From: Candidatus Micrarchaeota archaeon
GTDB lineage: Archaea; Micrarchaeota; Micrarchaeia; Anstonellales; Bilamarchaeaceae
Assembly (NCBI GenBank): GCA_014727975.1
Contig: WJMK01000039.1
Coordinates: 29,237-93,236, forward strand
Length of the DNA stretch: 64,000 nucleotides
Direction: 5' to 3'
Under the pieces are notes generated by a model. It was not told the origin of the DNA and made no database searches. It was given only the letters and a program-made list of their open reading frames with translations. Both the position numbers and the translations under genes were made by a program. Shown one piece after another: positions 17,283 through 38,564 of this stretch (its first letter is position 1; each line of letters opens with the position of its first letter).

Positions 17283-17773
17283 TTGCTGTAGGGATTGTAT
17301 ACGTAAATATCCACGTAGCCCAGCTCTGTTGTGCCATCATCGAAAAGATATGAGCCAACCCTGCGCACGCGGTAAATCTCATTTGAGTAGATATAGTCTT
17401 CCCCCTCTACTGCCCCTTCGTCCGGGTTGGAGGAATACCACCAGCACTCATTGTCTCCTTCCTTGTCCGTGAAATAGATTGCAACTCCATATTCAGAGCC
17501 CAGGGCATCCTGGGCATTGGTATCCCCGCTGCATAACCCTCCCACTTTGTCCCATACAATGTGCCTGTCGCTCCAGTTTACAGTTGTTCCATAGGGAACT
17601 TCAGTGGGGGAATAAAGGATATCTGCAATGCGGATTGCCTCTTTTGCAAGAGTGGACTGCTGCTGCTCGATTGAGTTGCTTACTCCATACCAATAGGAAA
17701 AAATTGCAACAAGGGTAAGGATGAATATAGAAGCGCCGACGATTGCATCAAAGCTGAAATACTGCCCTTTCAT
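17279..17773 (-). CDS. secreted pilin-like protein (class III signal peptide)
   Basis: MKG|QYFSFDAIVGASIFILTLVAIF: a [KR]G cleavage motif followed by a hydrophobic helix. Confidence 0.5.
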   Translation of the reverse strand: MKGQYFSFDAIVGASIFILTLVAIFSYWYGVSNSIEQQQSTLAKEAIRIADILYSPTEVPYGTTVNWSDRHIVWDKVGGLCSGDTNAQDALGSEYGVAIYFTDKEGDNECWWYSSNPDEGAVEGEDYIYSNEIYRVRRVGSYLFDDGTTELGYVDIYVYNPYSN

Positions 17774-17774
17774 T

Positions 17775-18323
17775 TTAGTCCTCCTCCAGCTCGCAGTAGA
17801 GCTCTATTGTGGGATATTCCTCCCCTTCCTCAATCCCTGTGTTTTTGAAGTAGATGTGCCCATCTGACTTCCCGGGTGTCAGGAGCAATGCAACATCCAC
17901 ATCCGAGCTTGAAGAAATGTCATCTATGCAAATCTGCCCGGGGGCACGCTCATAATTTGCGGGGGCGATTACATATGGGTAAACAAATTCCTGGTAGGTG
18001 CCTGCCCATGCAAACTGGATATAGCATCTCTTATCCTCCCCTGGTTCCTCATTGCATATGTATGTTACATTATAGTCCCGGGCTTCGAGCTTCTTCGGGA
18101 AAGAGGCATCATAGGTGAAGCCCTCCCCTCCCTTGTACGTGATTGTAGGTGCGGAAGCGAATTTGTATCCAAAAGCGTTTACAAGCTGCGATTCCCTGAG
18201 GCTGATTTCGCCGCGCTCAGTGAATGAGGTCAGCACATATGCTGCAATTGCAATAATCATGAATAGCCCTGCATACATCAGGAACTCGATTGCAACCTGC
18301 CCTTTCCTAGCCGCCATGCTCAA
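17775..18323 (-). CDS. archaeal type IV pilin-like protein
   Basis: MSMAARKG|QVAIEFLMYAGLFMIIAIAAYVL class III signal peptide. Confidence 0.6.
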   Translation of the reverse strand: MSMAARKGQVAIEFLMYAGLFMIIAIAAYVLTSFTERGEISLRESQLVNAFGYKFASAPTITYKGGEGFTYDASFPKKLEARDYNVTYICNEEPGEDKRCYIQFAWAGTYQEFVYPYVIAPANYERAPGQICIDDISSSSDVDVALLLTPGKSDGHIYFKNTGIEEGEEYPTIELYCELEED

Positions 18324-18783
18324 TCACCACTTCTCCATTGTCCATTGCATGAAACTTCATTGGGTAAAGCCCGGAAGGCGCAACCCCGTTCTCATTTGTA
18401 ACCAGGCCCACTGAACTCTGGTTAAGCTCCCCAAAGAAAGAGGTAGCAACATCAGTGGGGCCGCTGCTTGTTTCCAGCCGGATCACGACCTCGTTTTCAG
18501 TAATGTTTATGTATTGCGCATTGGTTGGGATATTGACCATTATCACCTTGGAGGCCTGCGGGCCCTCAATATTTACTTCATTTATTGAGTCTGCAATGAT
18601 GCGGACCACTGAGCTTGCCTGTACGTGGGAGAGGGACTCAAACCTTGCCTGCGCGCCTACCAGGAGGAGGAGGAGAATGGGCACCACAAAGATTAGTATG
18701 ATGCCTATCGTAACGAGCATCTCGGTTGCTGCCTGCCCTTTCCTAGTCTGCTGGTTCACAGTTTGCCACCTCATCGTTGTCAC
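18307..18783 (-). CDS. archaeal type IV pilin-like protein
   Basis: ...TRKG|QAATEMLVTIGIILIFVVPILLLL class III signal peptide. Confidence 0.6.
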   Translation of the reverse strand: MTTMRWQTVNQQTRKGQAATEMLVTIGIILIFVVPILLLLLVGAQARFESLSHVQASSVVRIIADSINEVNIEGPQASKVIMVNIPTNAQYINITENEVVIRLETSSGPTDVATSFFGELNQSSVGLVTNENGVAPSGLYPMKFHAMDNGEVVIEHGG

Positions 18784-20491: not shown

Positions 20492-21195
20492 GTGTACACC
20501 GTAAGCCTCACTATGCGAGTGTATGCATCTCCAATGATGTCAGCATTGTCCTCATGGTCATAATTATCGTAGTAGATGAATGGCTCGGGCCAGTCGCAGA
20601 TTGTGTAGTCCCCTCCGCATGTCATGTAAAACAGCGGGGATTCTTCCCCTCCCTCCGGAACCCCCTCATATCCAAAGTAGAGGGCGTGGGCTGCTGCCTT
20701 GAGCTTGTGGTATTCCTTCTTGTTCGCGGAATGGGAATCGGTTGCAGTATTGTAGAGCTCAACCCAGTCCCCCTCGGAAAAATCTATTTCTCCTTCTTCC
20801 AGTTCATCAAAATCCATGTATTCAAGCTTGTAGCCGAACTGGGCAGGGACAAGGGCGCTTTCATCATAAATCCCTTCAGTGCCCTGTGATCCGATATAGA
20901 TGCGGGCTGCAACATCATTCTCATCCATTCCTTCGGGGTCAGAATCCGAAATTATGCAGGAGAGGTAGGTCTGCCCTGCATCGCAGATGCCTTCTGTGTC
21001 TGCATCGTCCTCTCCAATAGTTGTGGTTGCAAGGGTGAGCAGGGTATCCTTTGCAAGGTAGTTTGCCTGCATAAGGGAAGAATAGTATGCTGAGGGGACT
21101 GTTGAGAAAAACAGGAGGGAATAAAGGGCTGCAACAGTCAGAACGAATGCTACAAACGAATCAAGCGAGAATATAAACGCCTTGCTGGTTCCCAT
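20488..21195 (-). CDS. pilin-like secreted protein
   Basis: MGTSKA|FIFSLDSFVAFVLTVAALYSLLFF N-terminus; acidic mature region. Confidence 0.5.
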   Translation of the reverse strand: MGTSKAFIFSLDSFVAFVLTVAALYSLLFFSTVPSAYYSSLMQANYLAKDTLLTLATTTIGEDDADTEGICDAGQTYLSCIISDSDPEGMDENDVAARIYIGSQGTEGIYDESALVPAQFGYKLEYMDFDELEEGEIDFSEGDWVELYNTATDSHSANKKEYHKLKAAAHALYFGYEGVPEGGEESPLFYMTCGGDYTICDWPEPFIYYDNYDHEDNADIIGDAYTRIVRLTVYT

Positions 21196-21237
21196 CGATA
21201 TAATTCTAGAATAAAAGCTTTTAAATGCAGCGGGGGG

Positions 21238-21600
21238 CTACTGGGGAACGCACTCGGACCACTGGCCGCACCGGTCGCATGTTTGGATCCCGCTTATGCA
21301 GCCTGGGGTGGGGCAGTACTGCTGCCCACCTGGTTCGCATTCCCTCGGGGCAATGCATGCAGACCATTTCCCATGCGAACATGTTTTGGTGCCCGGGCAC
21401 CCCCTCTCATCCAGGCAGGATTCCTTCGTTCCTGAAGTGCATCCGCCTGCTCCTGATGTAGTGGGCGCAAGCTTGGTTGGCTCAAAGCTGGAGGATGGGT
21501 CAGGTGGAGAAAAAAGAGTTATGAATGCCGCGAGCACCACGAAGCCCACGAGCAGGAAAACCACTATTGTTGCAATGGTGCCTGCATCCAAGCGCCTCAC
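21238..21600 (-). CDS. small membrane-anchored cysteine-rich protein
   Basis: 120 aa; N-terminal TM, then about 12 Cys in 80 residues (CTSGTKESCLDERGCPGTKTCSHGKWSACIAPRECEPGGQQYCPTPGCISGIQTCDRCGQWSEC). Confidence 0.5.
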   Translation of the reverse strand: MRRLDAGTIATIVVFLLVGFVVLAAFITLFSPPDPSSSFEPTKLAPTTSGAGGCTSGTKESCLDERGCPGTKTCSHGKWSACIAPRECEPGGQQYCPTPGCISGIQTCDRCGQWSECVPQ

Positions 21601-22559
21601 CTGTATTCAAGGGAGGGTGTAGACCCAGATGCGGAAATTCCATCTATGAAGGATGCCATGTCAAAAAGCCCTGCGGGCTCTGGGCTGGTGCGGACCATGC
21701 ATACTTCTATGTCCGATGCAGATTCATATTCCATGCCTGCAAGCTCTGCTGCCTTCAGGAGAGCATCGTCCCTTGAACCAAGCTCATCCACGAGCCCTGC
21801 CTGGAGGGCCATCCTGCCTGAAAGCACCCTTCCGTCAAGAACTTCATTGAAGTATGGGTATTTGAGCTTGTCTCCGCGCTGGTCTGTTATCTTGGACTTG
21901 AAATCCTGGAAGGATTCCATTACCAGGTCATAGAGAAGGTCGTGCTCTTCCTCTGTAAGGTTGCGGAGGGGATTTCCAATATCCTTCATCTCTCCTGATT
22001 TTACTACTACGTCCTTTATCCCTGCCATTTTGGCAAGCTCGCTGAACTCGGTAAGGTACATAACTGTCCCTATTGAGCCTGTCATTGCATTCGGCTCAGA
22101 AATTATGTAGTCGGAAGGCACGGAAACATAATAGCCTCCTGAAGCTGCAACCTCCCGGAAGTATGCGACAGTAGGCTTTTCCAGGGAATCCACAGCACGG
22201 TAAACTTCATCCGAAGCGACTACTGAGCCGCCTGGGGAATTTACCACGAGCAGGACTGCCCCAACCTCCTCCCTCCCATTCAAATCCTTTATTTTCTGGG
22301 AAAGCTCATAGGAGCCGTAACTGCCTTCGGTGAACATGCTTGCTGAGGCAGAGGTGGTAGTAATTTCCCCATTCAGCTCCACAACTGCGACACAATCCCC
22401 GACCAGGGGCCCCTCAAGCAGAAGGGAGAAAAGCGCAACAAGCAGAAGGGAGAGAAACCCAAGCCCAAAAAATGCTAGCACAATATAGGGGAGCTTTGTG
22501 CCGTTGCCTTCCCTGCCTTTGCCTGAGCGCATATATTTTTTTTCAGCCATTGATCCCAC
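21597..22559 (-). CDS. sppA: signal peptide peptidase SppA (S49 family)
   Basis: N-terminal TM, then LLVVNSPGGSVVASDEV...GGYYV...SIGTV; 4-nt overlap with the downstream Cys-rich gene. Confidence 0.85.
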   Translation of the reverse strand: MGSMAEKKYMRSGKGREGNGTKLPYIVLAFFGLGFLSLLLVALFSLLLEGPLVGDCVAVVELNGEITTTSASASMFTEGSYGSYELSQKIKDLNGREEVGAVLLVVNSPGGSVVASDEVYRAVDSLEKPTVAYFREVAASGGYYVSVPSDYIISEPNAMTGSIGTVMYLTEFSELAKMAGIKDVVVKSGEMKDIGNPLRNLTEEEHDLLYDLVMESFQDFKSKITDQRGDKLKYPYFNEVLDGRVLSGRMALQAGLVDELGSRDDALLKAAELAGMEYESASDIEVCMVRTSPEPAGLFDMASFIDGISASGSTPSLEYR

Positions 22560-22615
22560 CGTATTCCTGGAATAGAAAAAGGAGAATTAAATACCTATCG
22601 ATTATGAGTTATGGG

Positions 22616-23743
22616 TTATGCCTTTATTGTCGGGGGCCTGAACCATGGGAGGGAAACGCGGCTGGAGGGATGCTTCATCCTGTGCGGCCTTGCCCCAGGC
22701 TTTCCGCTCTTCACCCTGCGCCTTTGCGGAACTGGGATTTTGAAGCCTGCCTTTTTTGGGGCAGGCTCCATTAAGTTGGACCCAAGGGCACATGATATTC
22801 CTTCGGGCCTTGAAAGGATTTCCTGCTCCCTGCGGAGCTGGCGGATTTTCCCCTTAAGCCCATTCCTGCGCCTTTCAAGCTCTGCCTTTCTTCCTTCAGA
22901 AGGGCAGTTTGCCAGGGCGCATTCTGCGTACCTGTCAATTTCCTGTCCCGAGAGAAGATAGCGTTCAGCAAGCGCATCAGAAAAAACTTTCCCGTTCCGG
23001 ATTCCGCGCAGGAATGAAACTACTGAGAACTCCTTGAAAGCATCAAGCTCACCATGCGGAAGTTGGCTCCTGCCGAGAAAACCATGCACTGCTGCCTTTG
23101 CTTCCTTGGCTTCGCAAAGCAAAGCCGGGCGGAGGAAGTGTCCCCTGGAAATCTTCATGTATGTCTGTTTGGCCTGGTTCCTGACTTCCAAATCCCAGTC
23201 TAGCATGGCAAATGCGGCTTTTTGGGCTGCTTCAGGCTCAGCTAGCTCAAGGTCCAGAATTGCTGCAAGCCCAAGCAATCTCTCCTGCTTTTTTTCAGAA
23301 GAAAGAGAAAAAAGAAGCACACCAAGGACTGATGTGCGGGGCTCCTTTCCTGCAATGTTCCTTATCGCCTTTATGCATGGTATCAGGATGTCCTCTGTTC
23401 TCCTGAACTTGGCCTTGGGCCATTCCAGGGAGGAAAGCTCAATCAAGGTGCGTGCCACATCCTTTTTCCTGAGGGGGAATTCTTCTGTTGCATAGGCAGG
23501 CATCTGCTGTGAGCCAAGGCACCCTATCGCGTGAATCCCAAAAATAAATTCATCTTGTTCGGAACCTTCACGGACCATTTCTGCCAGTTTAACAATGAGT
23601 GATGCGCGCTCTGAAGGGAGCAGTTTCCCCGCATGCTGGGCAAGCTGCTCGGCAGCCTGGGCGCGGACAGCCGGTGATGTGTCTGAAAGTTGCCTGGAAA
23701 ATGCACCTATTGCTTCCCGCATATGCGGGATGTGGGAATTCAT
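22616..23743 (-). CDS. hypothetical alpha-helical (HEAT/ARM-like) protein
   Basis: 375 aa, helical repeat character (AVRAQAAEQLAQHAGKLL...), basic coiled-coil C-terminus; no catalytic motif seen. Confidence 0.35.
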   Translation of the reverse strand: MNSHIPHMREAIGAFSRQLSDTSPAVRAQAAEQLAQHAGKLLPSERASLIVKLAEMVREGSEQDEFIFGIHAIGCLGSQQMPAYATEEFPLRKKDVARTLIELSSLEWPKAKFRRTEDILIPCIKAIRNIAGKEPRTSVLGVLLFSLSSEKKQERLLGLAAILDLELAEPEAAQKAAFAMLDWDLEVRNQAKQTYMKISRGHFLRPALLCEAKEAKAAVHGFLGRSQLPHGELDAFKEFSVVSFLRGIRNGKVFSDALAERYLLSGQEIDRYAECALANCPSEGRKAELERRRNGLKGKIRQLRREQEILSRPEGISCALGSNLMEPAPKKAGFKIPVPQRRRVKSGKPGARPHRMKHPSSRVSLPWFRPPTIKA

Positions 23744-27892: not shown

Positions 27893-28906
27893 ATGGAAGG
27901 CATGCTTATTATTTGTTTCGGAGCAGGAAATGAGCGCATGGAAAACATTGAGAACCTGATGGAGCGGACCAATACTGCATATTATTCAGGGAGGGGAAAA
28001 AACATCTACCATGACTTCAAGACATTTGCAGCATCCAGGAAGCTGGGGAAGGCATGTGCAATCGAGTTTCTTGAAAGGGCGCAAAAAACAGAGGGGGAAC
28101 TGAGGGTTTATGAGTTTGGGGTGGGGGACGGGTGCTTTGCAGGCAACTTCCTGGAAAGCCTGGAGAAGATGGATTCTGCGGTTGCAAAGCGGGTGAGCTA
28201 TGTGCTCTGGGACATCAGCAAAAAAATGCTGGACGGGGCGATGGAGAAGCTGCATGGGCATCCTGTGGAATGCATATGCGAATCCGCTGAAAATCTTTCA
28301 GGGATGAAAGAAGCATTCTGGGTGCGCGGGAACGAAATACTTGATGATATTCCTGCACGCGTATTTTTGAAAAAAGGGGAAAAAATTTATGAGGTGGGAT
28401 GGAACAACGGGGAATTTGCTGCATGGGAAGAGCCCGGTGCGCCTGCGGAAGTTAAGGAGCGGATGCAGGAAGCGCCGGAGGGATATTGGGTCCCGGTTAA
28501 TTTGCGCGCAAAAAATATTGTGGAAAGATGGAGGGAAAGAGTTGTGCAGGGAGGGGGAATAAGCGTATTCGAATATGGGTTTTATTCAAATAAAGAAATG
28601 GTGGGGACCACCCCGGAAATCTGGAATGATTCTGTTGTACGTGAATACGGGGGGCAGTATACTGTTGATGTAGATTTTGGATGGCTGGAGAGAAGATGCG
28701 GAGGGAACGTGGAAAGGCAGGATGATTTTGTGCGCAGGTCTCTCGGGGAGGAGGTGTTTGCAGTCGAAACTGAACGCCTGGATTACCTGGGAGCCAAAGA
28801 GATTGAGGGAAAAAGGAAACTGCTGGAAAAAGAGGGGTATGACATTGAGCTGCTGAAGCGGGGGGCGGAAAAAAGCCCATTCTACCATTATGCCTGGCTC
28901 AGATGA
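27893..28906 (+). CDS. class I SAM-dependent methyltransferase-like protein
   Basis: VYEFGVGDGCFAGNFL resembles Rossmann motif I (GxGxG); 337 aa. Confidence 0.45.
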   Translation: MEGMLIICFGAGNERMENIENLMERTNTAYYSGRGKNIYHDFKTFAASRKLGKACAIEFLERAQKTEGELRVYEFGVGDGCFAGNFLESLEKMDSAVAKRVSYVLWDISKKMLDGAMEKLHGHPVECICESAENLSGMKEAFWVRGNEILDDIPARVFLKKGEKIYEVGWNNGEFAAWEEPGAPAEVKERMQEAPEGYWVPVNLRAKNIVERWRERVVQGGGISVFEYGFYSNKEMVGTTPEIWNDSVVREYGGQYTVDVDFGWLERRCGGNVERQDDFVRRSLGEEVFAVETERLDYLGAKEIEGKRKLLEKEGYDIELLKRGAEKSPFYHYAWLR

Positions 28907-29948
28907 GCTTGACAAAGCCACGGCCTATTTCCGGAAGATATGCCCCGAAAAGGTTTGTGGTTGAGAGGACGAAGCTCATTGTGATTACCATTGCAAGAAA
29001 AGGGAGGCAGCAAAGATTGATTGAGAATCCTGCAATCCTCCCCCCTGCGACTTCGGCCGAATCCGGTATCACCCCAAGCGGGTCAGTATTGAAGCCTGCA
29101 AGCTGGCTGGAAAGGGCACTAAGGGTCCCCATAAAGCCGCTCTGGTGGGCGTCGGTCCAGAGCATCGCCTTGAATGCGGTGTTGGGATTGCCGATTCCCT
29201 GGGTTGTGAACTGCTCCAAGCCTTCAAATTCAGGAAGCAGTGGGCAGGCAAATGTCTGGGGAGTAACGTTAGAAACAAGGATGAATGCGAAGGGAAAAAC
29301 AAGGTAAAACCCTATTGCAAAGGCAAGGATGAATGCGCCTGAACCCCTTGTGGGGGGGAACTGCCTGAGCACTATCCCCAGTGGAAGGAAGATGGTGAGC
29401 GCAGTTGCCTTTATGAAGCGGAGTATGTGGACGAATATATAGTAAATGAAGAGAGTGAATGTCATGTAATTGGTGATGTTGCGTATTGTCTGCACAGGGC
29501 CCTTGTATGCCCAGCCGCCAACAACATCAAACATGAAAACATCAACAGAAAAAGATGATGCAAGCTCAAGCGGGAAATTAAGCTTGAGGAGCAGCCTGAA
29601 GATGGAGTCTATGCACTGGTACACTGAATTCATGTATGCAAGCATATAATCTATCAGGGTAGCGCCATCTGCGCTGGTTGCAAGGGCAGGGACATAGCCG
29701 GTCTGCTGGCCAAAATTGGCCTCAGTCATAGGCAGAACAACCTGGTCCACAAGGAGGGGCTCAATCCACCCTATCAGGACCATCAGGAAAAGGAGGAGGA
29801 AAACCGTGGAAAGTGAAAATACCAACTCTGCCTTGGCCCACTGCTCCAGGGTGGGCAGGCCCATAAGCCTGGAAACCATTATCATTATGGCGGAGAGTGC
29901 TGAAGAGAACATTACCGCTATAATGCATATTATCTCCCAGTCTTGCAT
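28899..29948 (-). CDS. polytopic membrane protein, paralog 1 of a 6-gene array (unrecognised family)
   Basis: Core motif FLPLGIVLRQFPPTRGSGAFILAFAIGFYLVFP; TM1 followed by WAKAELVFS; C-terminal tail ...EIGRGFVKLI. Confidence 0.6.
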   Translation of the reverse strand: MQDWEIICIIAVMFSSALSAIMIMVSRLMGLPTLEQWAKAELVFSLSTVFLLLFLMVLIGWIEPLLVDQVVLPMTEANFGQQTGYVPALATSADGATLIDYMLAYMNSVYQCIDSIFRLLLKLNFPLELASSFSVDVFMFDVVGGWAYKGPVQTIRNITNYMTFTLFIYYIFVHILRFIKATALTIFLPLGIVLRQFPPTRGSGAFILAFAIGFYLVFPFAFILVSNVTPQTFACPLLPEFEGLEQFTTQGIGNPNTAFKAMLWTDAHQSGFMGTLSALSSQLAGFNTDPLGVIPDSAEVAGGRIAGFSINLCCLPFLAMVITMSFVLSTTNLFGAYLPEIGRGFVKLI

Positions 29949-31096
29949 CAGATCATCCTCGAAAGGTTGCTTATGTCTATTTCCTCCCCGAATGTTTTGG
30001 TCAGGTACCGTACTACAGTTACAAGTATAAGCATATTAAGGGCAGGGAAAAACAGGCCTATCAGGAACCCGACTGCAACCGTGCGCATCATCAGTGCAAG
30101 GTAAAGGCCGAATACTGTGCCAACAATTCCCCCTATCACTATTTCAAAAAAAGTAAAGAGCGTAAGCACTCCGCCGCTCAGGGAGAGTGACTGGCTCTGG
30201 AACTCAGTAAGCGCTTCCCAGTCCCATGCAGAGCTGACCAGGCTGTCCATGCTGGAGGTATAGTAATCCAACTGGAATGGGTGCATCGGGAAAATCATGT
30301 ATCCATTGAGTACAATGAGGTATGGGTAAACAAGCACAAGTCCGACAACGAGCCCTATCAGCGTTCCCCCTATCCTGCGTGTAGGGCTGAAGGAACGCAT
30401 CAGTATGCCAATGGGAAGGTAATACTTTATCATTGCAAAGCTGAGGAAATCCAGTATTATGAGCTGTGCCCTCACTACAATGAATGCGACGGTCAGCGAC
30501 TGCAGGCCATTTACAAAAATCGGGCGCAGAACTGCGCCAAATCCTGCTGTGGGCTGCAATGAAGTACCCATCCCAAGAGGATGCTGGCTGAGAGTAGTTG
30601 TTGTAATGAAATCCATGGGTATGTAAAGCGTATGGAGAATCGTGGAGACGATTACCAGGCTGTCCGAAAAGTCGTCAAGCACATAAGCTGCAGCATCAAA
30701 AAGATTCATGTCTGCAGTTTCTTCAGGGGAGATGAGGGAGCCCATGGGTACTGCACATGATGAATTCATGAGGGCAATCACAATGATTATTATGAATATG
30801 GTGGTGAATAGCTCAAAAATCTCCAGTTTTACTGTTGCCTTCCCCGTATCATTATTGAAAAAATGGTAGAACAGGTAGAGGAAAGCAAGTATTGCGGAGG
30901 ATGCTGCAACTGCTGCGGCCACATAAGTCTGCCAGTCCGGAATGAAAAATGCTTCCTCAGAAGATGGGCATATTTCGGTGGTTGCAAGGATGGGGTATGC
31001 ACCTTCATCAGAAGGGGTTGTGGTGCCCATTGAAGCACACCCCGAAAGGAGCAGGGCAAACAGGGCAAACATCCAATACCTATTCATCTTGATCAC
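29948..31096 (-). CDS. polytopic membrane protein, paralog 2 (lipobox-like signal LLLSGC)
   Basis: YLPIGILMRSFSPTRRIGGTLIGLVVGLVLVYP; C-terminal FGEEIDISNLSRMI. Confidence 0.6.
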   Translation of the reverse strand: MIKMNRYWMFALFALLLSGCASMGTTTPSDEGAYPILATTEICPSSEEAFFIPDWQTYVAAAVAASSAILAFLYLFYHFFNNDTGKATVKLEIFELFTTIFIIIIVIALMNSSCAVPMGSLISPEETADMNLFDAAAYVLDDFSDSLVIVSTILHTLYIPMDFITTTTLSQHPLGMGTSLQPTAGFGAVLRPIFVNGLQSLTVAFIVVRAQLIILDFLSFAMIKYYLPIGILMRSFSPTRRIGGTLIGLVVGLVLVYPYLIVLNGYMIFPMHPFQLDYYTSSMDSLVSSAWDWEALTEFQSQSLSLSGGVLTLFTFFEIVIGGIVGTVFGLYLALMMRTVAVGFLIGLFFPALNMLILVTVVRYLTKTFGEEIDISNLSRMI

Positions 31097-32311
31097 TCAT
31101 ACCAGTTTTGCAAATGCTGCGATGTTTATCTCGGTCCCAAAATACTTTGCAATCTCCCTTGCAAATGTGAATGTAACAAAAATATTGAACAGGGGGAGGA
31201 ATATGCTGAGCACGAACACAGTATAAATGACATCAGTATACAGGTCGAAGAAAGCAGTCAGCACCCAGGAGAGGGCGATTATGCCTGCAATTTGCTTTAC
31301 TGCACCCAGCAGGAAGATAGAATATATCGAAAGAGTGAGGAAGCCTCCGCTTCCGAGGAAATCAGAAACTATTGCCTCCACCCCGCTGCGCTCATGTAGA
31401 AGGCCGTAGTTGTAGCTATATGCCTGGTAGTTCATCACAAGCATCAGGGGGTAAACCATGAAAAAGGCAATTGAAAGCGCAATAAGCGCATTCCCCCCTC
31501 CCCTGGTTTGAGGGAAGGACTTAAGCAGAACCCCGATTGGGAGGAATATGCTCAGCATGTATTTCTTTATGAAACAGAGGATTATCAGGTTCACAATCCA
31601 CTCAGTCAATGCAAAGGAAAGAAGGGACGCCATTGTCCCGATTCCGTCCACAAGGGGCTTCAGGACTCCGCCGAGGTTGAAGTGGATGGCCATGTGGAGG
31701 GCCCCCCCAATGCGCAGCGGGGCGCTGTAAAGCATGTAGATAAGGGAGTTGAAAGCTCCGAGCCAAAAAATGTCATTGCTTATCTTCTGGACCATAAGCA
31801 TGGAATAATCCATTGCGGTCCCGAATACCCCATCAGGGTCTGTCCCTCCAAGTCCCATGATGTCGTATGCAATCAGGTAAAATGAAAAGAAAAGGGCAAC
31901 TATCAGGAGCGTGTGGATAAATTCAAAAATCTCCTGCTTTGACATTGCAACCATCTGGGGGGAATTGAAGAGGTTGCCTGCCATGTAGAAAATTGCAATC
32001 CCTATTCCGATTACCATAAGGGCGATTGCTGCGGGAATTGTGTAGTCCAGGGGGGAATGGACATCGCATGTGTTGCTTGTAACCCCCATGTCCTCCACTG
32101 TGGACTGCATCTTGTCCTTTGTTTTTTCTGCACCCTCCTGCACCATGGCTATCGGGTCCTGCCCTTCAGCTTCCGTATCTGAGTCTGTGTCTGTTGAAGC
32201 GTCTGCATCAGCATCTGCATCCAAATCAGGGCTCGCATCCACATCAATTCCCGGACTCGCAAATGCATAAAGGCAGAAAAGCAGCACCAGCAAAATAAAT
32301 TTCATTTTCAT
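31097..32311 (-). CDS. polytopic membrane protein, paralog 3 (signal peptide plus acidic D/T/S-rich N-terminal region)
   Basis: FLPIGVLLKSFPQTRGGGNALIALSIAFFMVYP; C-terminal FGTEINIAAFAKLV. Confidence 0.6.
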   Translation of the reverse strand: MKMKFILLVLLFCLYAFASPGIDVDASPDLDADADADASTDTDSDTEAEGQDPIAMVQEGAEKTKDKMQSTVEDMGVTSNTCDVHSPLDYTIPAAIALMVIGIGIAIFYMAGNLFNSPQMVAMSKQEIFEFIHTLLIVALFFSFYLIAYDIMGLGGTDPDGVFGTAMDYSMLMVQKISNDIFWLGAFNSLIYMLYSAPLRIGGALHMAIHFNLGGVLKPLVDGIGTMASLLSFALTEWIVNLIILCFIKKYMLSIFLPIGVLLKSFPQTRGGGNALIALSIAFFMVYPLMLVMNYQAYSYNYGLLHERSGVEAIVSDFLGSGGFLTLSIYSIFLLGAVKQIAGIIALSWVLTAFFDLYTDVIYTVFVLSIFLPLFNIFVTFTFAREIAKYFGTEINIAAFAKLV

Positions 32312-32321
32312 GCATTATCCC

Positions 32322-33584
32322 TCATATCAGGTGGGTAAGGCCCGCAAGCTCTATGTCTCCCCCGAATATTGGAGAAAGGCTGCGGATTGCTCCTACAGTG
32401 GAGAACACGGAAAGAAGGCCGAAGAACATGGAGAAAAACACGAACCTGGCCGTGGCGTCTATTACGCCCCCTGGTCCTATAAGTGAATCAATATAGCCGT
32501 CATCATCAACAATCTGCCCTGTGAAGTCTATGGAATAAAGGAACATGTCGAACCAGTCTGAAAGGAGGTCTGCTGCATCGGCTTCCCCAAAATCAGAAGT
32601 CTGCTGGCAGTAGTTTACAGTCTCCGGATAGAGCTCCTCTGTAAGGTATTTTTCATTGTCATCCGGCATATCCTGTCCGGGCACCTCCCCAGACACAATG
32701 GAATCTTCCTCCACAAAGCCTACTTTCCCGTAGAACTCCTCCGGGTCGAAATCCAGGGAGGTTATCACTTCGGGCATCCTCTTGCTTGGGTCTGGCTGTG
32801 AAGAATCATAATAAGGGCTCTGCATTGCTACGTTTTTGAAGATTATTGCACCCAGCACATAGAACATTGGAAAAATAAAAAACAGGGATATTCCTATCGC
32901 CATGAGCTGGCCACCAAGCCTCCGGCTGAAGGGGAAAGTGCGCAGTATCAGCCCAAGCATTACAAGAACAGGGTAAAGCGAATAATTTATGAAATTCAGG
33001 AAAAACTGCTGGAAGCGAACAATGACCATGGATTTCATGCCGAATTCAAACATGTAGGAATAGATAGAGGATGGAAGGGAGAATGCAGAGCCAAGCGGGG
33101 AATAGTTCACTGAGCCGCTTGTGTGCTCATGGAAATCAGCTGAAACGCCTATGTTCTGGAAAAAGGAATACCACATGTGGATTGAGAGGAGCTCATAGTT
33201 GAAGAGCTTTCCTTCTGAGTAAAGGGTATCCAGATAATAGCGGGCCATCCTCATGTGGCAGGGGAACTGGTTTTCAAAATCATTGAAATAAGGGTCAAAT
33301 GTAGGGCCGCATATCTGCGCCCCCAGGCCTGGGTCAGGGTATACCCCTTTGATCAAGCTCGCTGCTGCTTCTGTTGCAGTTGCAAGCACGAGCAGCACCA
33401 CCACGATTAATGCTGCTGAGTAAAATGCCTCAACCAGCTCCAGCTTTGCAAATGCAATCATCTTGTCGTTGTTAAGGAACTGCCCGAGCATATAGACAAG
33501 GGCAGCAAACACAATAGCAAGGGAAATTGCAAGAACCGCAATCATTTCCCATTGCTGCCAGAGGTTGCTAACTACATCAAGCAT
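32322..33584 (-). CDS. polytopic membrane protein, paralog 4 (large acidic loop insert)
   Basis: LGLILRTFPFSRRLGGQLMAIGISLFFIFP; C-terminal FGGDIELAGLTHLI. Confidence 0.6.
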   Translation of the reverse strand: MLDVVSNLWQQWEMIAVLAISLAIVFAALVYMLGQFLNNDKMIAFAKLELVEAFYSAALIVVVLLVLATATEAAASLIKGVYPDPGLGAQICGPTFDPYFNDFENQFPCHMRMARYYLDTLYSEGKLFNYELLSIHMWYSFFQNIGVSADFHEHTSGSVNYSPLGSAFSLPSSIYSYMFEFGMKSMVIVRFQQFFLNFINYSLYPVLVMLGLILRTFPFSRRLGGQLMAIGISLFFIFPMFYVLGAIIFKNVAMQSPYYDSSQPDPSKRMPEVITSLDFDPEEFYGKVGFVEEDSIVSGEVPGQDMPDDNEKYLTEELYPETVNYCQQTSDFGEADAADLLSDWFDMFLYSIDFTGQIVDDDGYIDSLIGPGGVIDATARFVFFSMFFGLLSVFSTVGAIRSLSPIFGGDIELAGLTHLI

Positions 33585-33585
33585 G

Positions 33586-34518
33586 CTATCCCTTCCCTGT
33601 AATAAACTTGGTCACTGCGTTTACAAACGCGATTGTCAGCGTCATGGTAAGGGCAGGCAGGAAAAGGCCCACCAGGGAGATTTGGGATATGCGGTCCATA
33701 AATGGCACAAGCGCCATGAAGGAGAGGGGCTGAAAAATTGGCAAAAACCACGAGGAGAAATAAGTATCCGTAGTTGAGGTTGCAACCCCAAGTGCATCGT
33801 CCATGCTATTGAAATAGTTGGTTTCCTCTATGTTGGGAGTATACGAATCCGCCCAGCCATGTAGTTGCCACATATCGCTAAGCGCGATATAGTTGATGGA
33901 ATAAAGCAGGGGAAAAAAGCACTGGAAGGCTATGGCTAACACTATCAGGTACACCCCTGCATCACGGGTGGGCGGGAAAAACCTCAATATGATTCCTGCA
34001 GGAAGCAGGTAGTAATAGGCAACTGCATCAATAAGGTAGAAAAGTATCACCTGGACGCTCATTGTCCCGTAAAGGGCAGTAAAGCTGAATACGAGCATGC
34101 GGACGATGGAGATTAGGGGGTCAAGGCCGGGAACAGCTTTTGTAATCCAGTTCCATGGACCCGGCCCCATCCTGTATTCAACTGCATTAAAGTAAGTAAG
34201 GAGCACTTCCATCCTTACCAGCTTAAGGTAAATTGGAAGGATTCCTTCATTTATTACTATGTTGAGGAACTCTATGGATATATCTATGGGGTTGCCTCCT
34301 GCAAGTGCAGTGGATGCCATGTCTGCAAAGTTCCATGCAGCAAATGCAATCACAAGGATTATTGCTGAAAGAAAAAGCTGGCTGAGCTCAATCTTGGCAT
34401 ATGCCTCAAGCTGCGGGCGCTTAAGTGCATAAGAGAGCATGAAAACAATCGAGATGTACCCTATAAGGGCAAGCACGGTTATTCCGATTATTCCCATGTA
34501 TGATTCAAGGTCCATCAC
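33586..34518 (-). CDS. polytopic membrane protein, paralog 5 (shortest; lacks the C-terminal tail motif)
   Basis: LLPAGIILRFFPPTRDAGVYLIVLAIAFQCFFP; after TM1, PQLEAYAKIELSQLF. Confidence 0.6.
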   Translation of the reverse strand: MMDLESYMGIIGITVLALIGYISIVFMLSYALKRPQLEAYAKIELSQLFLSAIILVIAFAAWNFADMASTALAGGNPIDISIEFLNIVINEGILPIYLKLVRMEVLLTYFNAVEYRMGPGPWNWITKAVPGLDPLISIVRMLVFSFTALYGTMSVQVILFYLIDAVAYYYLLPAGIILRFFPPTRDAGVYLIVLAIAFQCFFPLLYSINYIALSDMWQLHGWADSYTPNIEETNYFNSMDDALGVATSTTDTYFSSWFLPIFQPLSFMALVPFMDRISQISLVGLFLPALTMTLTIAFVNAVTKFITGKG

Positions 34519-35753
34519 ACCACCTTAGTGAGCCCGAGGATTTCAAGCTCTCCGCCAAGGGCTGCCGCTATAGCGCGGTATCCTGTAATCGTTATTATTA
34601 TCTCTATCACGAAAGTAACTGCAATCATTACTGAAATCTGTGCAAGGCCCTGGAATCTCTCAAGGACCATGAAATAGAAGAAATATGCAAAAGTTGTGGG
34701 CTTTATTATGTCTATAAATGTATGAAGGGATACTTTCCCCCCCACAAACTCCCATAAATCAGAAAGCAGGCCCCCGAGCAGCCCCTGTGCAGAGCCTATC
34801 AGTCCTGAAACCTGGTACCAGTTGCTTTCATAGGGAAGCGGATTGCTGAGGTCGGTTGAAAGCTGCTCCCTGATCTCCGCATTTGACTGGTTGAGATAAA
34901 AAAGCGACTCGTTGATGTCTGCCCCCTCTGGCTCACATATTCCGAGGGGTGTTGGGGCGATTGGGATATATGCAGGATGGGCCTGGGGCCCGAACATCAG
35001 GTAATGGGAAAAGAGGATAGACGCAGGGAATATAAAGAAGCCTGCAAAGGAGATTGCAATGAGGCTGGAGCCTGTTGTACGGGTAAAGGGAAGCGAGCGC
35101 AAAAACAGCCCAAGGGGGAGCAGGAAGCCAGGGGTTATGTCAAAAAGGAATTCGAGGAGCTGCTGCCTTCCCACAACAAGCCCCACAAGCATACCTATGC
35201 TCTCGATTATGCTTACCACCGCATTGCTGAGCATGGCCATTCCGCCATATGGCGAAAAGCTGAGCCACTTTACTGCAAGGATAGGGGTTCCCATGGAAAG
35301 GCTGAACCCAATACTGGAAAGGACCCCGATAAATATTTCAAGGGAAAGAAACCCCACATATGCGCTAAGGATCTCATAGAAAACAGAATCAAGGGAATAG
35401 AATGCAAGCGTCACCAGGGAACAGGACTCTCCTCCGCAGATTGCAGCTGAGACGATTCCGCTTGTTGCCGCATATACTGCAAACCAGGATGCTGCGATAA
35501 AAACAGAAATCATCCATTGGGAAAGCTCCTCCTTTGCAAAAGCGTCAATCTGGGGGGAGCCTAGGAACTTCCCAAGCAGGTAGTACAGAATAACTATGAA
35601 CCCTGCAGAAAGCAGGGCAATCGGGAGAAGCTCTGCAACAAAGGGGTGGGACACTGCTTCCCCAAGCCGCAAAACATCGGTGGATTGGAGCAGAGGGGGT
35701 GCGTACATCATGATAGGCGTCCCGGTCATACGGGTATTTGTTACGACTAACAA
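34515..35753 (-). CDS. polytopic membrane protein, paralog 6 (first gene of the array)
   Basis: LLPLGLFLRSLPFTRTTGSSLIAISFAGFFIFP; after TM1, SPQIDAFAKEELSQW; C-terminal LGGELEILGLTKVV. Confidence 0.6.
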   Translation of the reverse strand: MLVVTNTRMTGTPIMMYAPPLLQSTDVLRLGEAVSHPFVAELLPIALLSAGFIVILYYLLGKFLGSPQIDAFAKEELSQWMISVFIAASWFAVYAATSGIVSAAICGGESCSLVTLAFYSLDSVFYEILSAYVGFLSLEIFIGVLSSIGFSLSMGTPILAVKWLSFSPYGGMAMLSNAVVSIIESIGMLVGLVVGRQQLLEFLFDITPGFLLPLGLFLRSLPFTRTTGSSLIAISFAGFFIFPASILFSHYLMFGPQAHPAYIPIAPTPLGICEPEGADINESLFYLNQSNAEIREQLSTDLSNPLPYESNWYQVSGLIGSAQGLLGGLLSDLWEFVGGKVSLHTFIDIIKPTTFAYFFYFMVLERFQGLAQISVMIAVTFVIEIIITITGYRAIAAALGGELEILGLTKVV

Positions 35754-35804
35754 ATATAAATATATAGTCTCAAAGGAAAACTATTCTGAATTCGGGTAAT
35801 TTGC

Positions 35805-38564
35805 ATGGATTTGCGTGAAATGGAAAAAAAATGGCAGGAAACGTGGGAAGAACGGCATATTTATGAGCCAAAGGACTCGGGGGGAGAAAAAAGGTTTTAT
35901 ACTGCAGCATTCCCTTACCCCAATTCCCCGCAGCACATCGGGCACGGGAGAACATATACGCTTCTGGATATCCATGCCAGGTATGCAAGGCTTGCAGGAA
36001 AGAATGTGCTGCTGCCAATGGCATTCCATGTGACAGGAACGCCTATTCTCGCAATGGCCAAGAAAGTGAGGGAGAAAGACCCTGAGCTTCTCAGGATTTT
36101 CAGGGACATTTACGGGATTCCTGAGGGGGAGTTTGGGGAGCTAGGGGACCCGGAAAAGCTGGTCATGTATTTTTCGCGCGAGATTGAGGAGGGGATGAGG
36201 GAAATGGGCTATTCCATCGACTGGAGAAGGAAATTCTACACATTTGATGCACATTTCAACAAGTTTGTGCAGTGGCAGATGAAGAAGCTGCACCAGATGG
36301 GCTACATAAGCAAGGGCAGCCACAGGGTTGCATGGTGCCCCTCGGACAAGAACGTAGTGAGCTCACACGACACAAAGGGAGATGTGGACCCGGAAATTGA
36401 GGAAGTTACCGGAGTGAAGTTTAAGCTTGGAGAGGGAGAATTCCTTGCGGTCAGCACCTACAGGCCCGAAACGATTTATGGTGTTACGAATCTCTGGGTG
36501 AACCCGGAATCAACCCTGGTGAAGGCAGAAACAAATGAAGGGCTTGTCTATTTTGGAAAGGAGGCCTGGGAAGCTCTTTCACTGCAGCTGGAGGGGAAGG
36601 CCCTGGAGGAGATAAGCGGCAAAGAGCTTGTCGGGAAGGAAGTGGAAACTCCGCTTGGAAAAAAAGTTCCTGTGCTCCCTGCTTCATTCGTGGACCCTGG
36701 GGCAGGAACAGGGATCGTTATGAGCGTACCCGCGCATGCGCCCTATGATTATGCTGCTTTGAAAGATTTAGGGAAATTGGACCTGTTGCAGGACCAACAT
36801 TACGTGATTGGATATCAGGGGGGAGTGGTGCACAAAATGGAGGAGGAGTATAAGAGATATGGGATAGAGAACCAAAATGACCCAAAATTAGACGAAATGA
36901 CAAAGGCTGTCTATAAGAAAGAAGCCCACAAAGGAAAAATGACAATCAAATCGGGAGAATTCAGGAAAGATCTTGGCATAGAAGGGATATATGGGATGCC
37001 GGTGATGGTTGCAAAAGAAAAGGTTGCGGAAAAGCTGGTTTCTGAAGGGAATGCTTTTCGGTTTTATTTGATTGCAAATGGGCCTGTGCACTGCAGGTGC
37101 GGGGCAAAAATTACAGTAAATATGGTGCGGGACCAGTGGTTCATAGATTACGGCAACACGGAATGGAAAGAAAAGGGGAAAGAATGCCTTGCGGAAATGA
37201 AGCTAATTCCGGAGAATACGCGCAAGGATTACCTTGCAACAATAGACTGGCTCAAGCAGAAGGCATGCACCCGCTCCACAGGCCTGGGAACTCCCTTCCC
37301 ATTTGATGAAAGCAAGATTGTGGAGCCGCTTTCTGATTCCACAATATATATGGCGTTCTACACGATTGCGCATGGGCTGGAGGGAATGGGCCCTGAAGAG
37401 CTTACTGAGGAATTTTTTGATTATGTGTTTTTGGGCAGGGGGGATGCGGGAATGCACCCCAAAGCAAAAGAGCTGCGTGCAAAGTTTGAATACTGGTATC
37501 CTGTGGACGCAAGGCATTCGGGCGCGGACCTTGTGCGCAACCACCTTCCTTTTTTTGTGCTAAACCATGCAGCAATTTTCCCGGAACAGGATTGGCCAAG
37601 GGGAATAATAGTCAATGGGTTTGTGCTAATGGAAGGCAAAAAGATGAGCAAATCCCTTGGGAATATCCTCCCCCTGCGGAAAGCAATACGGGAATACGGG
37701 GCAGACGTGATTCGCTTTTCTGTGGTTGCCGGGGCAGACCTTGTACAGGACACAAACTTTGAAACAGGTGTTGCGCAAGGGGTAAAAGAAAGGGTTGAGC
37801 ACCTGCTTTCCTTGCTGGGGAGCTCGCGTGGAAACGATGAGACACGGGCCGGGAAATGGCTGCTTTCCAGGCTCAACCGCAAGCTCAGGGAAGCGCCAAT
37901 GCTTTATTCAAATATGCAGGCAAGGGAGCTGGGGCAGATGCTTTTTTACGAGAGCCTGCAGGAGCTGCAGTGGTACCTAAAGCGGGCGGAGAAGCCCGGG
38001 CTCGATAGATTCTTTGAGAAATGGTGCATTGCATTCTCACCATTTATGCCCCACCTTGCAGAAGAGATTTGGGTTTCTCTGGGGAAAGAGGGGCTTGCGG
38101 TTGAGCAGGAATTCCCTGAAGCGGATGAATCTCTGGTGGATGATGGGTTAGAAATTGGGGAGAAATTGCTTTCCGGGATTGTTTATGACGTAGAAAAAAT
38201 TTCTGAAAGGATGGGGAAAAAGCCTTCAATGATTTATGTGTACGTGGCTTCTGGCTGGAAACGCGGGATTTATGATGAGATGAAGGACAAAAAAGACCTT
38301 AGGGCAGGGATTGAGTGGGCGAAAGCGAATGGGGCAGAGATGGGAAGTGCTTCGGGCTTTGCTAAATCCCTGATGAAAAAAGTGCATTCACTGCCTCCTG
38401 TGCTGGGAGAGGAGGATGAGCTGGAGGCCTTGCAGGATGCTGCGGAGTTCCTTGCTAAGGAAACAGGTGCAGAAGTGCTTGTGCGGAAGGAGGATGACGC
38501 TTCTGGGGGGCATGAAAAGGCATCTGCGGCTGCTCCGGGCAAGCCCGCACTCATCCTTGAGTGA
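35805..38564 (+). CDS. leuS: leucyl-tRNA synthetase
   Basis: HIGHGRTY and KMSKS class I motifs; 919 aa, archaeal-type editing domain. Confidence 0.95.
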   Translation: MDLREMEKKWQETWEERHIYEPKDSGGEKRFYTAAFPYPNSPQHIGHGRTYTLLDIHARYARLAGKNVLLPMAFHVTGTPILAMAKKVREKDPELLRIFRDIYGIPEGEFGELGDPEKLVMYFSREIEEGMREMGYSIDWRRKFYTFDAHFNKFVQWQMKKLHQMGYISKGSHRVAWCPSDKNVVSSHDTKGDVDPEIEEVTGVKFKLGEGEFLAVSTYRPETIYGVTNLWVNPESTLVKAETNEGLVYFGKEAWEALSLQLEGKALEEISGKELVGKEVETPLGKKVPVLPASFVDPGAGTGIVMSVPAHAPYDYAALKDLGKLDLLQDQHYVIGYQGGVVHKMEEEYKRYGIENQNDPKLDEMTKAVYKKEAHKGKMTIKSGEFRKDLGIEGIYGMPVMVAKEKVAEKLVSEGNAFRFYLIANGPVHCRCGAKITVNMVRDQWFIDYGNTEWKEKGKECLAEMKLIPENTRKDYLATIDWLKQKACTRSTGLGTPFPFDESKIVEPLSDSTIYMAFYTIAHGLEGMGPEELTEEFFDYVFLGRGDAGMHPKAKELRAKFEYWYPVDARHSGADLVRNHLPFFVLNHAAIFPEQDWPRGIIVNGFVLMEGKKMSKSLGNILPLRKAIREYGADVIRFSVVAGADLVQDTNFETGVAQGVKERVEHLLSLLGSSRGNDETRAGKWLLSRLNRKLREAPMLYSNMQARELGQMLFYESLQELQWYLKRAEKPGLDRFFEKWCIAFSPFMPHLAEEIWVSLGKEGLAVEQEFPEADESLVDDGLEIGEKLLSGIVYDVEKISERMGKKPSMIYVYVASGWKRGIYDEMKDKKDLRAGIEWAKANGAEMGSASGFAKSLMKKVHSLPPVLGEEDELEALQDAAEFLAKETGAEVLVRKEDDASGGHEKASAAAPGKPALILE

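Follow-up and report, generated by a model that had tools for sequence, protein, structure and literature searches.

In the VirB6/TrbL family of type IV secretion system (T4SS) components, TrwI of R388 forms an oligomeric base for VirB2 pilin assembly and has been described as 'seven long helices, five hydrophobic' (PMC9259494), and a weak similarity of the VirB6 N-terminus to pilin has been reported (PMC9905601). The membrane proteins CedA and TedA also have N-termini homologous to pilin, the relation reported for CedA1/CedA being the same as that for VirB2/VirB6 (PMC9905601). In the Rickettsiales rvh system and in Anaplasma, T4SS genes lie in several loci, and the exposed regions vary and in many cases carry extensions (PMC2653234, PMC7648143). 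A conjugation-derived T4SS (VirB4, VirB6, VirB3 and VirB2-like) is retained across the Patescibacteria (CPR), a phylum of ultrasmall episymbionts, and has been reported to be essential for epibiotic growth of one cultured strain (PMC12102498). It has long been asked how DPANN archaea attach to their hosts and exchange material with them, and annotation is lacking for most of their membrane proteome. No description of a conjugation-type apparatus in Micrarchaeota was found in full-text literature searches on the question or in term-searched Micrarchaeota genome papers.

The minus strand of the window (the whole 64-kb stretch of Micrarchaeota DNA that was analysed) carries, at 28899-35753, six co-directional ORFs coding for homologous membrane proteins with five predicted transmembrane (TM) helices. 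The initial annotation had described their co-directional packing and left the strand unstated; the packing is indeed tight, with intergenic gaps, from position 1 to position 6, of -4, +1, +10, 0 and -1 nt. Position 1 (34515-35753) encodes 412 aa when read from a TTG codon and ends with the tail GGELEILGLTKVV; its true start is probably the ATG at 35729, which gives 404 aa, matches the NCBI protein P0001 and is located 31 nt downstream of a TATA-like box, TATATATTTATAT (35754-35766). Position 2 (33586-34518, 310 aa) is the minimal member and has no C-terminal tail. Position 3 (32322-33584, 420 aa, tail GGDIELAGLTHLI) contains an acidic loop of ~130 aa, predicted to face outward, between TM4 and TM5. 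Position 4 (31097-32311, 404 aa, tail GTEINIAAFAKLV) starts with a signal-peptide-like N-terminus followed by an acidic, D/T/S-rich, presumably outward extension, and position 5 (29948-31096, 382 aa, tail GEEIDISNLSRMI) has a lipobox-like LLLSGC at its N-terminus. Position 6 (28899-29948, 349 aa) has a one-residue insertion in its tail, GAYLPEIGRGFVKLI. The TATA-like box lies within the 51-nt intergenic region (35754-35804) that separates the array from the divergent leuS gene (35805-38564, plus strand) and that is presumed to be the promoter of the six-gene unit. A methyltransferase/PIN_5 pair flanks the array on the other side.

Pairwise identity of the six paralogs is ~20%, and the family HMM matches every ORF with E values of 1e-55 to 1e-93. 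Since orthologues with ~40% and ~27% identity retain all six genes in unchanged order, the ORFs are real genes, and the tandem array of paralogs proposed from the sequence is borne out. The three motifs said to be shared by the proteins were found as stated. The K and E of the 'AKxEL' motif following TM1 are retained in the family; the core block G-x3-R-x5-R-x2-G ... P (LPxGxxLRxFPxTRxxG) is present in all six; and the C-terminal tail GGExExxGLxKLI is present in five of six, the 310-aa protein alone being devoid of it. The variable elements that had been pointed out at positions 3, 4 and 5 (the acidic loop, the acidic signal region and LLLSGC, respectively) were also seen.

Among 107 family members, loop 1, loop 3 and the tail have a K+R density of 0.10-0.13, versus 0.04-0.07 in the remaining loops. 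AF2 modelling gave long helices (pLDDT 78 and 73), in line with the description of TrwI/VirB6 (PMC9259494). Hydropathy, the AF2 helices and these positive-inside statistics predict polytopic subunits with five TM helices, an N-out/C-in orientation and, following TM2, a large loop on the outside. As was suggested earlier, a conserved TM core is combined with diversified loops: the core and the cytoplasmic motifs are kept, while the outward loops and N-termini are strongly variable and acidic, and in other lineages some array positions enlarge to 700-1600 aa.

The family had been called unrecognised, and no match to the six genes or to 107 diverse members was retrieved from Pfam-A, NCBIfam or PDB sequences. 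Fold searches of family models returned nothing robust, and a match of the SEDS, Wzy or MATE type did not appear. Identity with the T2SSF/PilC/FlaJ platform was rejected, as none of the six genes matched PF00482 (T2SSF), while the genuine T2SSF gene pair in the window (47624-49600) was detected with E values of 1e-15 to 1e-18. The family comprises 3181 cluster representatives (50% identity, E<=1e-3) among 1.84 billion clusters, and a motif scan placed it in at least 120 genome loci, almost all from Micrarchaeota among the matches listed. A very large unannotated protein family is thereby defined.

Family members occur in three genomic contexts, in two of which synteny links them with an apparatus of the conjugation type (VirB2 pilin and VirB4 ATPase). 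Type I, that of the window, is a stand-alone six-gene array divergent from leuS. In Type II, two or three VirB2/TrbC-like pilin genes are followed by six members, two genes for 240-430-aa membrane proteins (hereafter tm240) and a gene for a VirB4/CedB-like ATPase; the operon is complete in L071+L012 and partially visible in L027, L076, L034, L041, L097, L110 and L117. In Type III, a single member is located in a conjugative-element-like module with the order pilin, member, ~240-aa membrane protein, ATPase, HTH protein, ~150-aa TM protein and second ATPase. A profile of the solitary subfamily aligned with that of the window's six genes over 308 columns (probability 99.75%, E 2e-27). Among the Type III small ORFs, PF04956 (TrbC/VirB2) was matched in 9/15 (best E 4e-6) and PF18895 (T4SS_pilin) in 8/15, these pilin matches scoring below gathering thresholds. 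The Type III ATPase aligns full length to the VirB4 C-terminal domain 4ag5 and also matches F-type TraC on plasmids. The best NCBIfam models for ATPases adjacent to the family in relatives were CedD (1e-18), CedB (3e-17) and VirB4-like, all under curated cut-offs, and DUF87, AAA_10 and P-loop_TraG were matched as well. The tm240 proteins always adjoin the ATPase, and the tm240 starts inspected have a single hydrophobic N-terminal region.

As can be seen, a VirB2-type pilin and a VirB4-type ATPase are encoded in one cluster with a family member in Type II and Type III loci of other Micrarchaeota. Because the relatives' copies sit between conjugation-type pilins and a VirB4-like ATPase, the six proteins probably make up the membrane platform of a type IV secretion-like machine in archaea, which fits the secretion or assembly role considered in the initial annotation. 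Its suggested link to nearby pilus systems did not hold: the type IV pilus locus (47-55 kb, T2SSE/T2SSF) never adjoins the family in the relatives' loci listed, where its partners are conjugative, VirB2/TrbC-type pilins and the VirB4/CedB-like ATPase instead.

Each position of the window's array best matches the same position of other Type I arrays, with diagonal scores of 134-432 bits. In comparisons with Type II, the diagonal is clearest for L027 (71, 93, 77 and 92 bits at positions 2-5). With the complete L071+L012 operon it is the row maximum throughout (61, 58, 63, 61, 61 and 105 bits), off-diagonal scores at positions 3-5 reaching 57-58 bits; position 6 is the one best conserved between the two types.

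Pilin, tm240 and VirB4-like genes are absent from the 64-kb window, and none is visible in the flanks of Type I arrays among the loci listed. These arrays occupy a core-genome setting, divergent from leuS in at least 15 loci and upstream of PIN_5 in at least 10, and some MAGs contain a Type I array and a separate Type II or Type III locus (L087 with L112; L018/L070 with L108), which leaves room for a division of labour. The leuS-linked array might be T4SS-related by ancestry but uncoupled, and function as an independent housekeeping membrane complex in which neither a pilin nor a VirB4-like protein takes part; a channel, an envelope-assembly scaffold or a conduit for lipids or solutes would be examples. 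We consider this unlikely, since Type I and Type II arrays have retained similar cytoplasmic loops and position-specific tails, positional orthology across both types argues for the same assembly with the same cytoplasmic partner, and T4SS genes are often scattered, as in the Rickettsiales rvh system (PMC2653234).

A pilin HMM matched family members at their N-terminal hairpin, with a best full-sequence E of 4e-7. When all ORFs of the loci were searched, it retrieved family members at 5e-6 and no other membrane protein. Alignment of pilin and family profiles by hhalign gave the same register, weakly (E 0.011), and among the window's six genes position 4 alone was matched by the HMM, also weakly (E 0.03), at its N-terminal hairpin, no better match to the pilin HMM being present in the window. 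In common with CedA/TedA, family members show homology to their cognate two-helix pilin in the N-terminal region and, in relatives, have a partner ATPase of the CedB/VirB4/HerA type.

No match to PF04610 (VirB6/TrbL) was found among the six genes or 107 family members, and hhalign comparison with a shallow (Neff 3.2) profile of 30 TrwI-subfamily sequences gave probabilities of 0.4% for the family profile and 0.2% for the solitary-subfamily profile. Fold searches with TrwI/VirB6 (R388 stalk, 7o3v chain F) as the reference produced no robust match to VirB6, and NCBIfam yielded no match linking the family to CedA/TedA. The missing VirB6 match would suit a different T4SS-like membrane part, involved in pilin processing or chaperoning or serving as a lineage-specific scaffold, with the VirB6 role held by an undetected protein or by tm240 proteins, which are likewise uncharacterised membrane proteins next to the ATPase. 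We find such an assignment improbable: within the module the family alone is polytopic, with 5 TM helices (tm240 being judged from starts with one hydrophobic region), its gene directly follows the pilin gene, like tedA and cedA (PMC9905601), and its N-terminus is pilin-like, as reported for CedA and VirB6.

Where an array is bounded at both ends, it contains six members (10/10 cases), and bounded single copies are Type III in 12/12 cases (both among the loci listed). The C-terminal tails are position-specific, and position 2 is tail-less in 10/10 bounded arrays examined. The six genes are six old, separate orthologous groups whose number and order are fixed across the phylum, which is the signature of an obligate multi-subunit complex. 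Six-fold bounded arrays and position-to-position matching therefore make the array a fixed set of six different subunits and not the variable surface repertoire that had been envisaged. A set of interchangeable or variable surface paralogues for antigenic or host-range variation, as proposed for Anaplasma/Bartonella VirB6 or VirB2 paralogues, would agree with the variable acidic outward regions, with the positions enlarged to 700-1600 aa and with published interpretations of tandem T4SS paralogues in obligate symbionts (PMC12102498, PMC7648143), but is highly improbable given the constant six members, one-to-one positional orthology and position-specific tails over deep divergence, no copy-number variation, pseudogenes or signs of recombination seen, and overlapping or abutting stop and start codons, which point to co-expression of all six.

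We therefore favour, with some confidence, the reading that the array is the VirB6/CedA-equivalent membrane platform of a domesticated T4SS-like apparatus, direct VirB6 homology not being detected by profile. Its functional counterparts would be VirB6/TrbL in bacteria and CedA/TedA in Crenarchaeota. Each subunit would begin with a two-helix hairpin like that of the cognate VirB2-like pilin, its long helices would reach outward bearing the variable acidic loops, and its cytoplasmic side would expose the conserved Arg-rich loop (LRxFPxTRxxG) and, in five of six subunits, the conserved tail. The tightly coupled operon would supply the six subunits in equal amounts that assemble in the cytoplasmic membrane as a single heteromeric platform or channel; we infer both its heteromeric nature and the stoichiometry from how the genes are ordered and conserved. 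The conserved cytoplasmic face may dock a hexameric VirB4/CedB-like ATPase, while at the outward face VirB2-like pilins would be recruited and polymerised and the substrate passed. By analogy with conjugation and Ced/Ted, the substrate would be exchanged with a partner cell and may be DNA or a macromolecule of another kind. In the window's lineage, the six-gene module would stand apart from the presumed pilin and ATPase genes, at a conserved housekeeping site beside leuS. More tentatively, and with the odds rather against it, the six proteins could constitute a heteromer that is obligate and pseudo-symmetric, built as a ring of six or as five subunits with tails plus the tail-less position-2 subunit, and serve as the central membrane base of a T4SS-derived machine. 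This would be the first heteromeric VirB6-type translocon, and the phylum-wide Micrarchaeota-host conduit for DNA or other macromolecules would be this machine instead of type IV pili. The six proteins, their conserved cytoplasmic motifs, the partner pilins and the ATPase are concrete targets for cultured Micrarchaeota-host pairs.

Like VirB6/TrbL, a polytopic inner-membrane T4SS component of long, mostly hydrophobic helices encoded with a VirB2-type pilin and a VirB4 ATPase, the family is found, in relatives, at the equivalent genomic position, is predicted to share the gross topology and has a hairpin resembling pilin at its N-terminus. It differs in that sequence or profile similarity is undetectable and no robust fold match was found. 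The LRxFPxTRxxG loop and the GGExExxGLxKLI tail are seen in this family, the only sequences examined for them. The architecture is unusual: TrwI is a homo-pentamer made from one gene, and known systems use a single-gene homo-oligomer for this component, whereas here there are six distinct paralogues in fixed order.

The Ced/Ted systems are likewise archaeal, chromosomally domesticated T4SS derivatives composed of a VirB2-like pilin, a polytopic membrane protein and a VirB4/HerA-like ATPase, and the highest NCBIfam scores of the neighbouring ATPases in Micrarchaeota are those to the CedB and CedD models. CedA/TedA, however, are single-copy proteins with 6-7 TM helices, compared with five predicted TM helices and six paralogues here, and Ced/Ted hosts are crenarchaeal rather than DPANN Micrarchaeota, the comparison being made by description and NCBIfam models. 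Several co-directional VirB6-type paralogues in a reduced-genome symbiont are also found in Rickettsiales rvh (RvhB6a-e) and Anaplasma; those are bacterial, recognisable VirB6 proteins in 4-5 copies with huge C-terminal extensions, and the parallel is an analogy only. The Patescibacteria T4SS is of the bacterial monoderm type, its VirB6 is recognised by existing HMMs, and its pilins are expanded rather than a fixed six-fold VirB6 set being present. It is nevertheless the bacterial counterpart of the apparatus proposed here for DPANN Micrarchaeota, whose array parallels a system reported to be essential for epibiotic growth.

The array consists of six co-directional genes on the minus strand, numbered here from the leuS side: position 1 (34515-35753, a 412-aa ORF), position 2 (33586-34518, 310 aa), position 3 (32322-33584, 420 aa), position 4 (31097-32311, 404 aa), position 5 (29948-31096, 382 aa) and position 6 (28899-29948, 349 aa). 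The successive intergenic gaps are -4, +1, +10, 0 and -1 nt. Despite a mutual identity of only about 20%, all six ORFs carry the motifs listed in the initial annotation (an AKxEL motif after TM1, an Arg-rich core loop and, except at position 2, a C-terminal tail), and the six-gene paralogous array that it described is real. The product of gene 1 matches the NCBI protein GF412_04460 [Candidatus Micrarchaeota archaeon] at 100% over the stretch compared, and its start is most likely the ATG at 35729, as in the NCBI call, which yields a protein of 404 aa rather than the 412-aa ORF opened by TTG. A TATA-like box, TATATATTTATAT (35754-35766), lies 31 nt upstream of this ATG, in the 51-nt spacer common to the array and the divergent leuS; this spacing points to an mRNA with a short leader or none and to the 404-aa product. 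A promoter/terminator scan returned counts at chance level; the consensus it uses is bacterial and does not apply to archaea.

The array is surrounded by archaeal housekeeping genes (MCM, Cdc6, LeuRS, MetRS, Pab1020-type RNA ligase, PIN_5). A type IV pilus-like locus is located at 47093-54936 of the minus strand, with a T2SSE ATPase (51285-53201), two T2SSF platform genes (47624-48694 and 48704-49600) and ORFs of 549 aa and 574 aa (the latter coiled-coil) that belong to no family. The array had been tentatively linked to this nearby pilus system, but in relatives such a locus never adjoins the family, and the link is not upheld. Also on the minus strand, region 17279-23743 contains an S49 peptidase gene (21597-22559) and, after it, small TM ORFs, of which one matches DUF7287 weakly (E 1.7e-4), and a 582-aa ORF without a family; an S49 gene and small ORFs are also found a few kb from the array of a distant relative, L004 (relatives' loci with family genes are designated L plus a number). 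A 1425-aa ORF in region 8800-13077 (minus strand) has no Pfam match.

When 1.84 billion cluster representatives were searched exhaustively with an HMM, 3181 homologues of the array proteins were retrieved at E<=1e-3, including 2605 at <=1e-10. A hand-made degenerate motif, which describes the core loop at the DNA level, was checked on known loci first; applied to one genome for each GTDB species, it revealed at least 120 stretches. Nearly all of the matches listed are labelled Micrarchaeota (Micrarchaeia, Micrarchaeales, Micrarchaeaceae, Anstonellaceae, Bilamarchaeaceae, Burarchaeum and Fermentimicrarchaeum), and a few are labelled “ainarchaeum”, “Marsarchaeota”, “archaeon” or “bacterium”. No match was found by the motif scan in IMG/VR viral contigs or by tblastn with a solitary family member in 72,556 plasmids. 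The family is thus large and essentially limited to one phylum, throughout which it is present and unannotated; the feature is real.

HMMs of the family and its neighbours, run over all loci fetched, define three genomic contexts. These loci contain 441 family ORFs, which belong to fewer than 100 arrays. Type I, to which the window belongs, is a stand-alone six-gene array, divergent from an adjoining leuS in 15 loci (LeuRS identity 41-68%) and followed by PIN_5 in 10 loci. In L004, a 1.37-Mb Micrarchaeota contig, an IS605 OrfB/TnpB (Cas12f-like) gene (6431-7567) is inserted between leuS and an otherwise intact array. Type II is a single co-directional operon of 2-3 small ORFs, six family members, two membrane proteins of about 240-430 aa (hereafter tm240) and an ATPase. 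The whole of it is found in L071+L012, and its pilin end is seen in L027 and in L076, the complete genome of “Ca. Fermentimicrarchaeum limneticum”. Two paralogous tm240 genes, with products of about 275-430 aa, lie 3′ of the array in L012 (2370-4497) and in five loci where this end of the operon is visible (L034, L041, L097, L110 and L117), and a VirB4-like ATPase gene comes next in all of them except L097, in which no such gene is visible. In Type III, the order is small ORF, single family member, one tm240, ATPase, HTH protein, TM protein of roughly 150 aa and second ATPase, a layout that resembles that of a conjugative element. The tm240 proteins, which match nothing in Pfam or NCBIfam, could be VirB3- or VirB8-like parts.

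The products of the small ORFs of Types II and III begin with a signal peptide, after which two hydrophobic helices flank a short basic loop. Nine of 15 match PF04956 (TrbC/VirB2 pilin; best E 4e-6) and eight of 15 match PF18895 (T4SS pilin), Type II ORFs giving the same matches at E 1.6e-4 to 9e-4; all of these matches are below Pfam gathering scores, yet they are consistent. The neighbouring ATPases contain DUF87/HerA, AAA_10 and P-loop_TraG domains, resemble the VirB4 C-terminal domain (4ag5) over its whole length (E 1e-8), match F-type TraC on plasmids and have CedD, CedB and VirB4-like conjugal ATPases as their best NCBIfam matches. Together, such genes make up a minimal T4SS or the archaeal Ced/Ted systems, which arose by domestication of a T4SS (PMC9905601). 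Compared as profiles, the Type III members and the six window genes align over 308 columns with a probability of 99.75% (E 2e-27); the window genes are therefore homologous to a protein embedded in a T4SS-like operon. We consider it highly likely that the family is part of a T4SS-derived apparatus.

The main rival explanation is that the leuS-linked array is by now an independent housekeeping membrane complex. Pilin, tm240 and VirB4-like genes are absent from the 64-kb window, and they never occur in the visible flanks of Type I arrays. In some MAGs a Type I array is found together with a Type II or III locus (L087 with L112; L018/L070 with L108), so that co-occurrence is possible in individual cases. 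Several family loci, or two six-gene arrays, lie on different contigs in some MAGs, such as L084 and L119 in WY4.bin88 or L018/L070, L042 and L108 in MEGAHIT-group-0.296; either the second copies are genuine (Type I plus Type II) or the bins are mixed.

Runs of family genes with at least 600 bp of other sequence on both sides were taken as bounded; ten of them are arrays of six members and the remaining 12, all of Type III, contain a single member, with no other size occurring. Each window gene best matches the gene at the same position of other Type I arrays (323-432 bits against L014+L056; 134-181 bits against L078+L081). The same diagonal is observed with Type II, most clearly in L027 (71, 93, 77 and 92 bits for positions 2-5). 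Against L071+L012 it amounts to 61, 58, 63, 61, 61 and 105 bits, the row maximum at every position, with a narrow lead at positions 3-5, for which off-diagonal scores are as high as 57-58 bits. The C-terminal tails also differ by position, consistently across the phylum: GGExEIxGLTKVV at position 1, none at position 2, GGDIEIAGLTHLI at position 3, GTEINIxAFxKLI at position 4, GEEIDVxNLTRLI at position 5 and GAxLPEIGRGLVKLI at position 6. In a crude NJ tree, unlike in the best-hit matrices and tails, the six positional groups did not come out as clades. The positional matches and position-specific tails indicate that the six-fold paralogy and the gene order are older than the split between Types I and II. 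From these comparisons, such a fixed set is what would be expected of six non-interchangeable subunits of one complex. A variable surface repertoire would not be expected to look like this, and the surface-variation role proposed initially is not supported; an antigenic-variation array is rejected on the fixed positional orthology. Position-3 paralogues reach 700-904 aa in Burarchaeum, Fermentimicrarchaeum and “ainarchaeum” (L045+L104, L076, L012+L071), and L042 has one family member of 1604 aa; these enlarged proteins contain large outward insertions.

Five hydrophobic helices are predicted. Across 107 diverse members, the density of K+R is high in loop 1 (0.134), loop 3 (0.125) and the tail (0.102) and low in the N-terminus (0.041), loop 2 (0.039) and loop 4 (0.070), and positions 4 and 5 have signal-peptide or lipobox-like N-termini ahead of TM1. 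Both features predict an outside N-terminus and an inside C-terminus, which would place all three conserved motifs in the cytoplasm and the variable acidic loops outward. The N-terminal hairpin (TM1, AKxEL, TM2) is pilin-like: a pilin HMM matches family members there with a best full-sequence E of 4e-7 and matches no other membrane protein of the loci. In the window, position 4 alone was matched (E 0.03). Position-2 paralogues of 520-550 aa, present in some lineages (L052, 5460-7058; L058, L118, L103, L077, L025), carry two tandem pilin-like hairpins at the N-terminus (E down to 4e-7). A like resemblance between pilin and membrane protein has been reported for the pairs CedA1/CedA and VirB2/VirB6 (PMC9905601).

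The initial statement that the proteins fit no characterised family stands. The six genes have no match in Pfam-A or NCBIfam, the 107 members yielded only scattered chance matches and no consistent family in Pfam, and profiles of 6 and 107 sequences matched no PDB sequence. AF2 models of position 2 (pLDDT 77.8, pTM 0.68) and position 6 (pLDDT 72.9, pTM 0.69) are long-helix bundles with disordered outward loops, and Foldseek against PDB gave a best E of 0.26, noise of the Tweety/TAS2R/BAR type. Membership of VirB6/TrbL failed every direct sequence test run: there was no PF04610 match, and hhalign was negative against single TrwI and gave probabilities of 0.4% and 0.2% against a profile of the TrwI subfamily, which is shallow. 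Fold comparison gave no robust match. The lack of a T2SSF domain rules out a type IV pilus platform protein. SEDS, Wzy, MATE and other transporters or glycosyltransferases are rejected for lack of any match.

The best explanation is that the array encodes, in a new form built of six subunits, the VirB6/CedA-type membrane component of a T4SS-derived apparatus. Functional equivalence to VirB6/CedA is suggested by the family member being apparently the sole polytopic protein of the module, its location directly after the pilin genes, its VirB6-like gross topology and its pilin-like N-terminus. Family members would form a membrane base that recruits and polymerises pilin and through which substrate may pass, and their conserved cytoplasmic loop and tails would be the docking site of the VirB4-like ATPase. 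The array could assemble as a six-membered ring or as five subunits with a tail plus position 2, which has none. We infer the steps from T4SS-like operon member to VirB6 equivalent, heteromer and ATPase docking, and on balance we lean towards the full mechanistic reading, with its VirB6/CedA-equivalent base, heteromer and ATPase docking.

Full-text searches of the literature on Micrarchaeota or DPANN with T4SS or conjugation turned up neither the family nor a Micrarchaeota T4SS-like system nor a six-paralogue array, and Micrarchaeota genome papers searched for pilus, secretion and conjugation wording mention type IV pili at most. In R388, a VirB6 homo-pentamer lies beneath a five-start pilus, within a six-fold VirB4 assembly (PMC9259494); there VirB6 is the product of one gene, whereas the array has six genes in its place. 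According to published descriptions, tedA and cedA directly follow pilin genes, as the family does here. The closest analogues are found in Rickettsiales and Anaplasma, with their tandem VirB6 paralogues (PMC2653234, PMC7648143), and in Patescibacteria epibionts, across which a T4SS is kept (PMC12102498).
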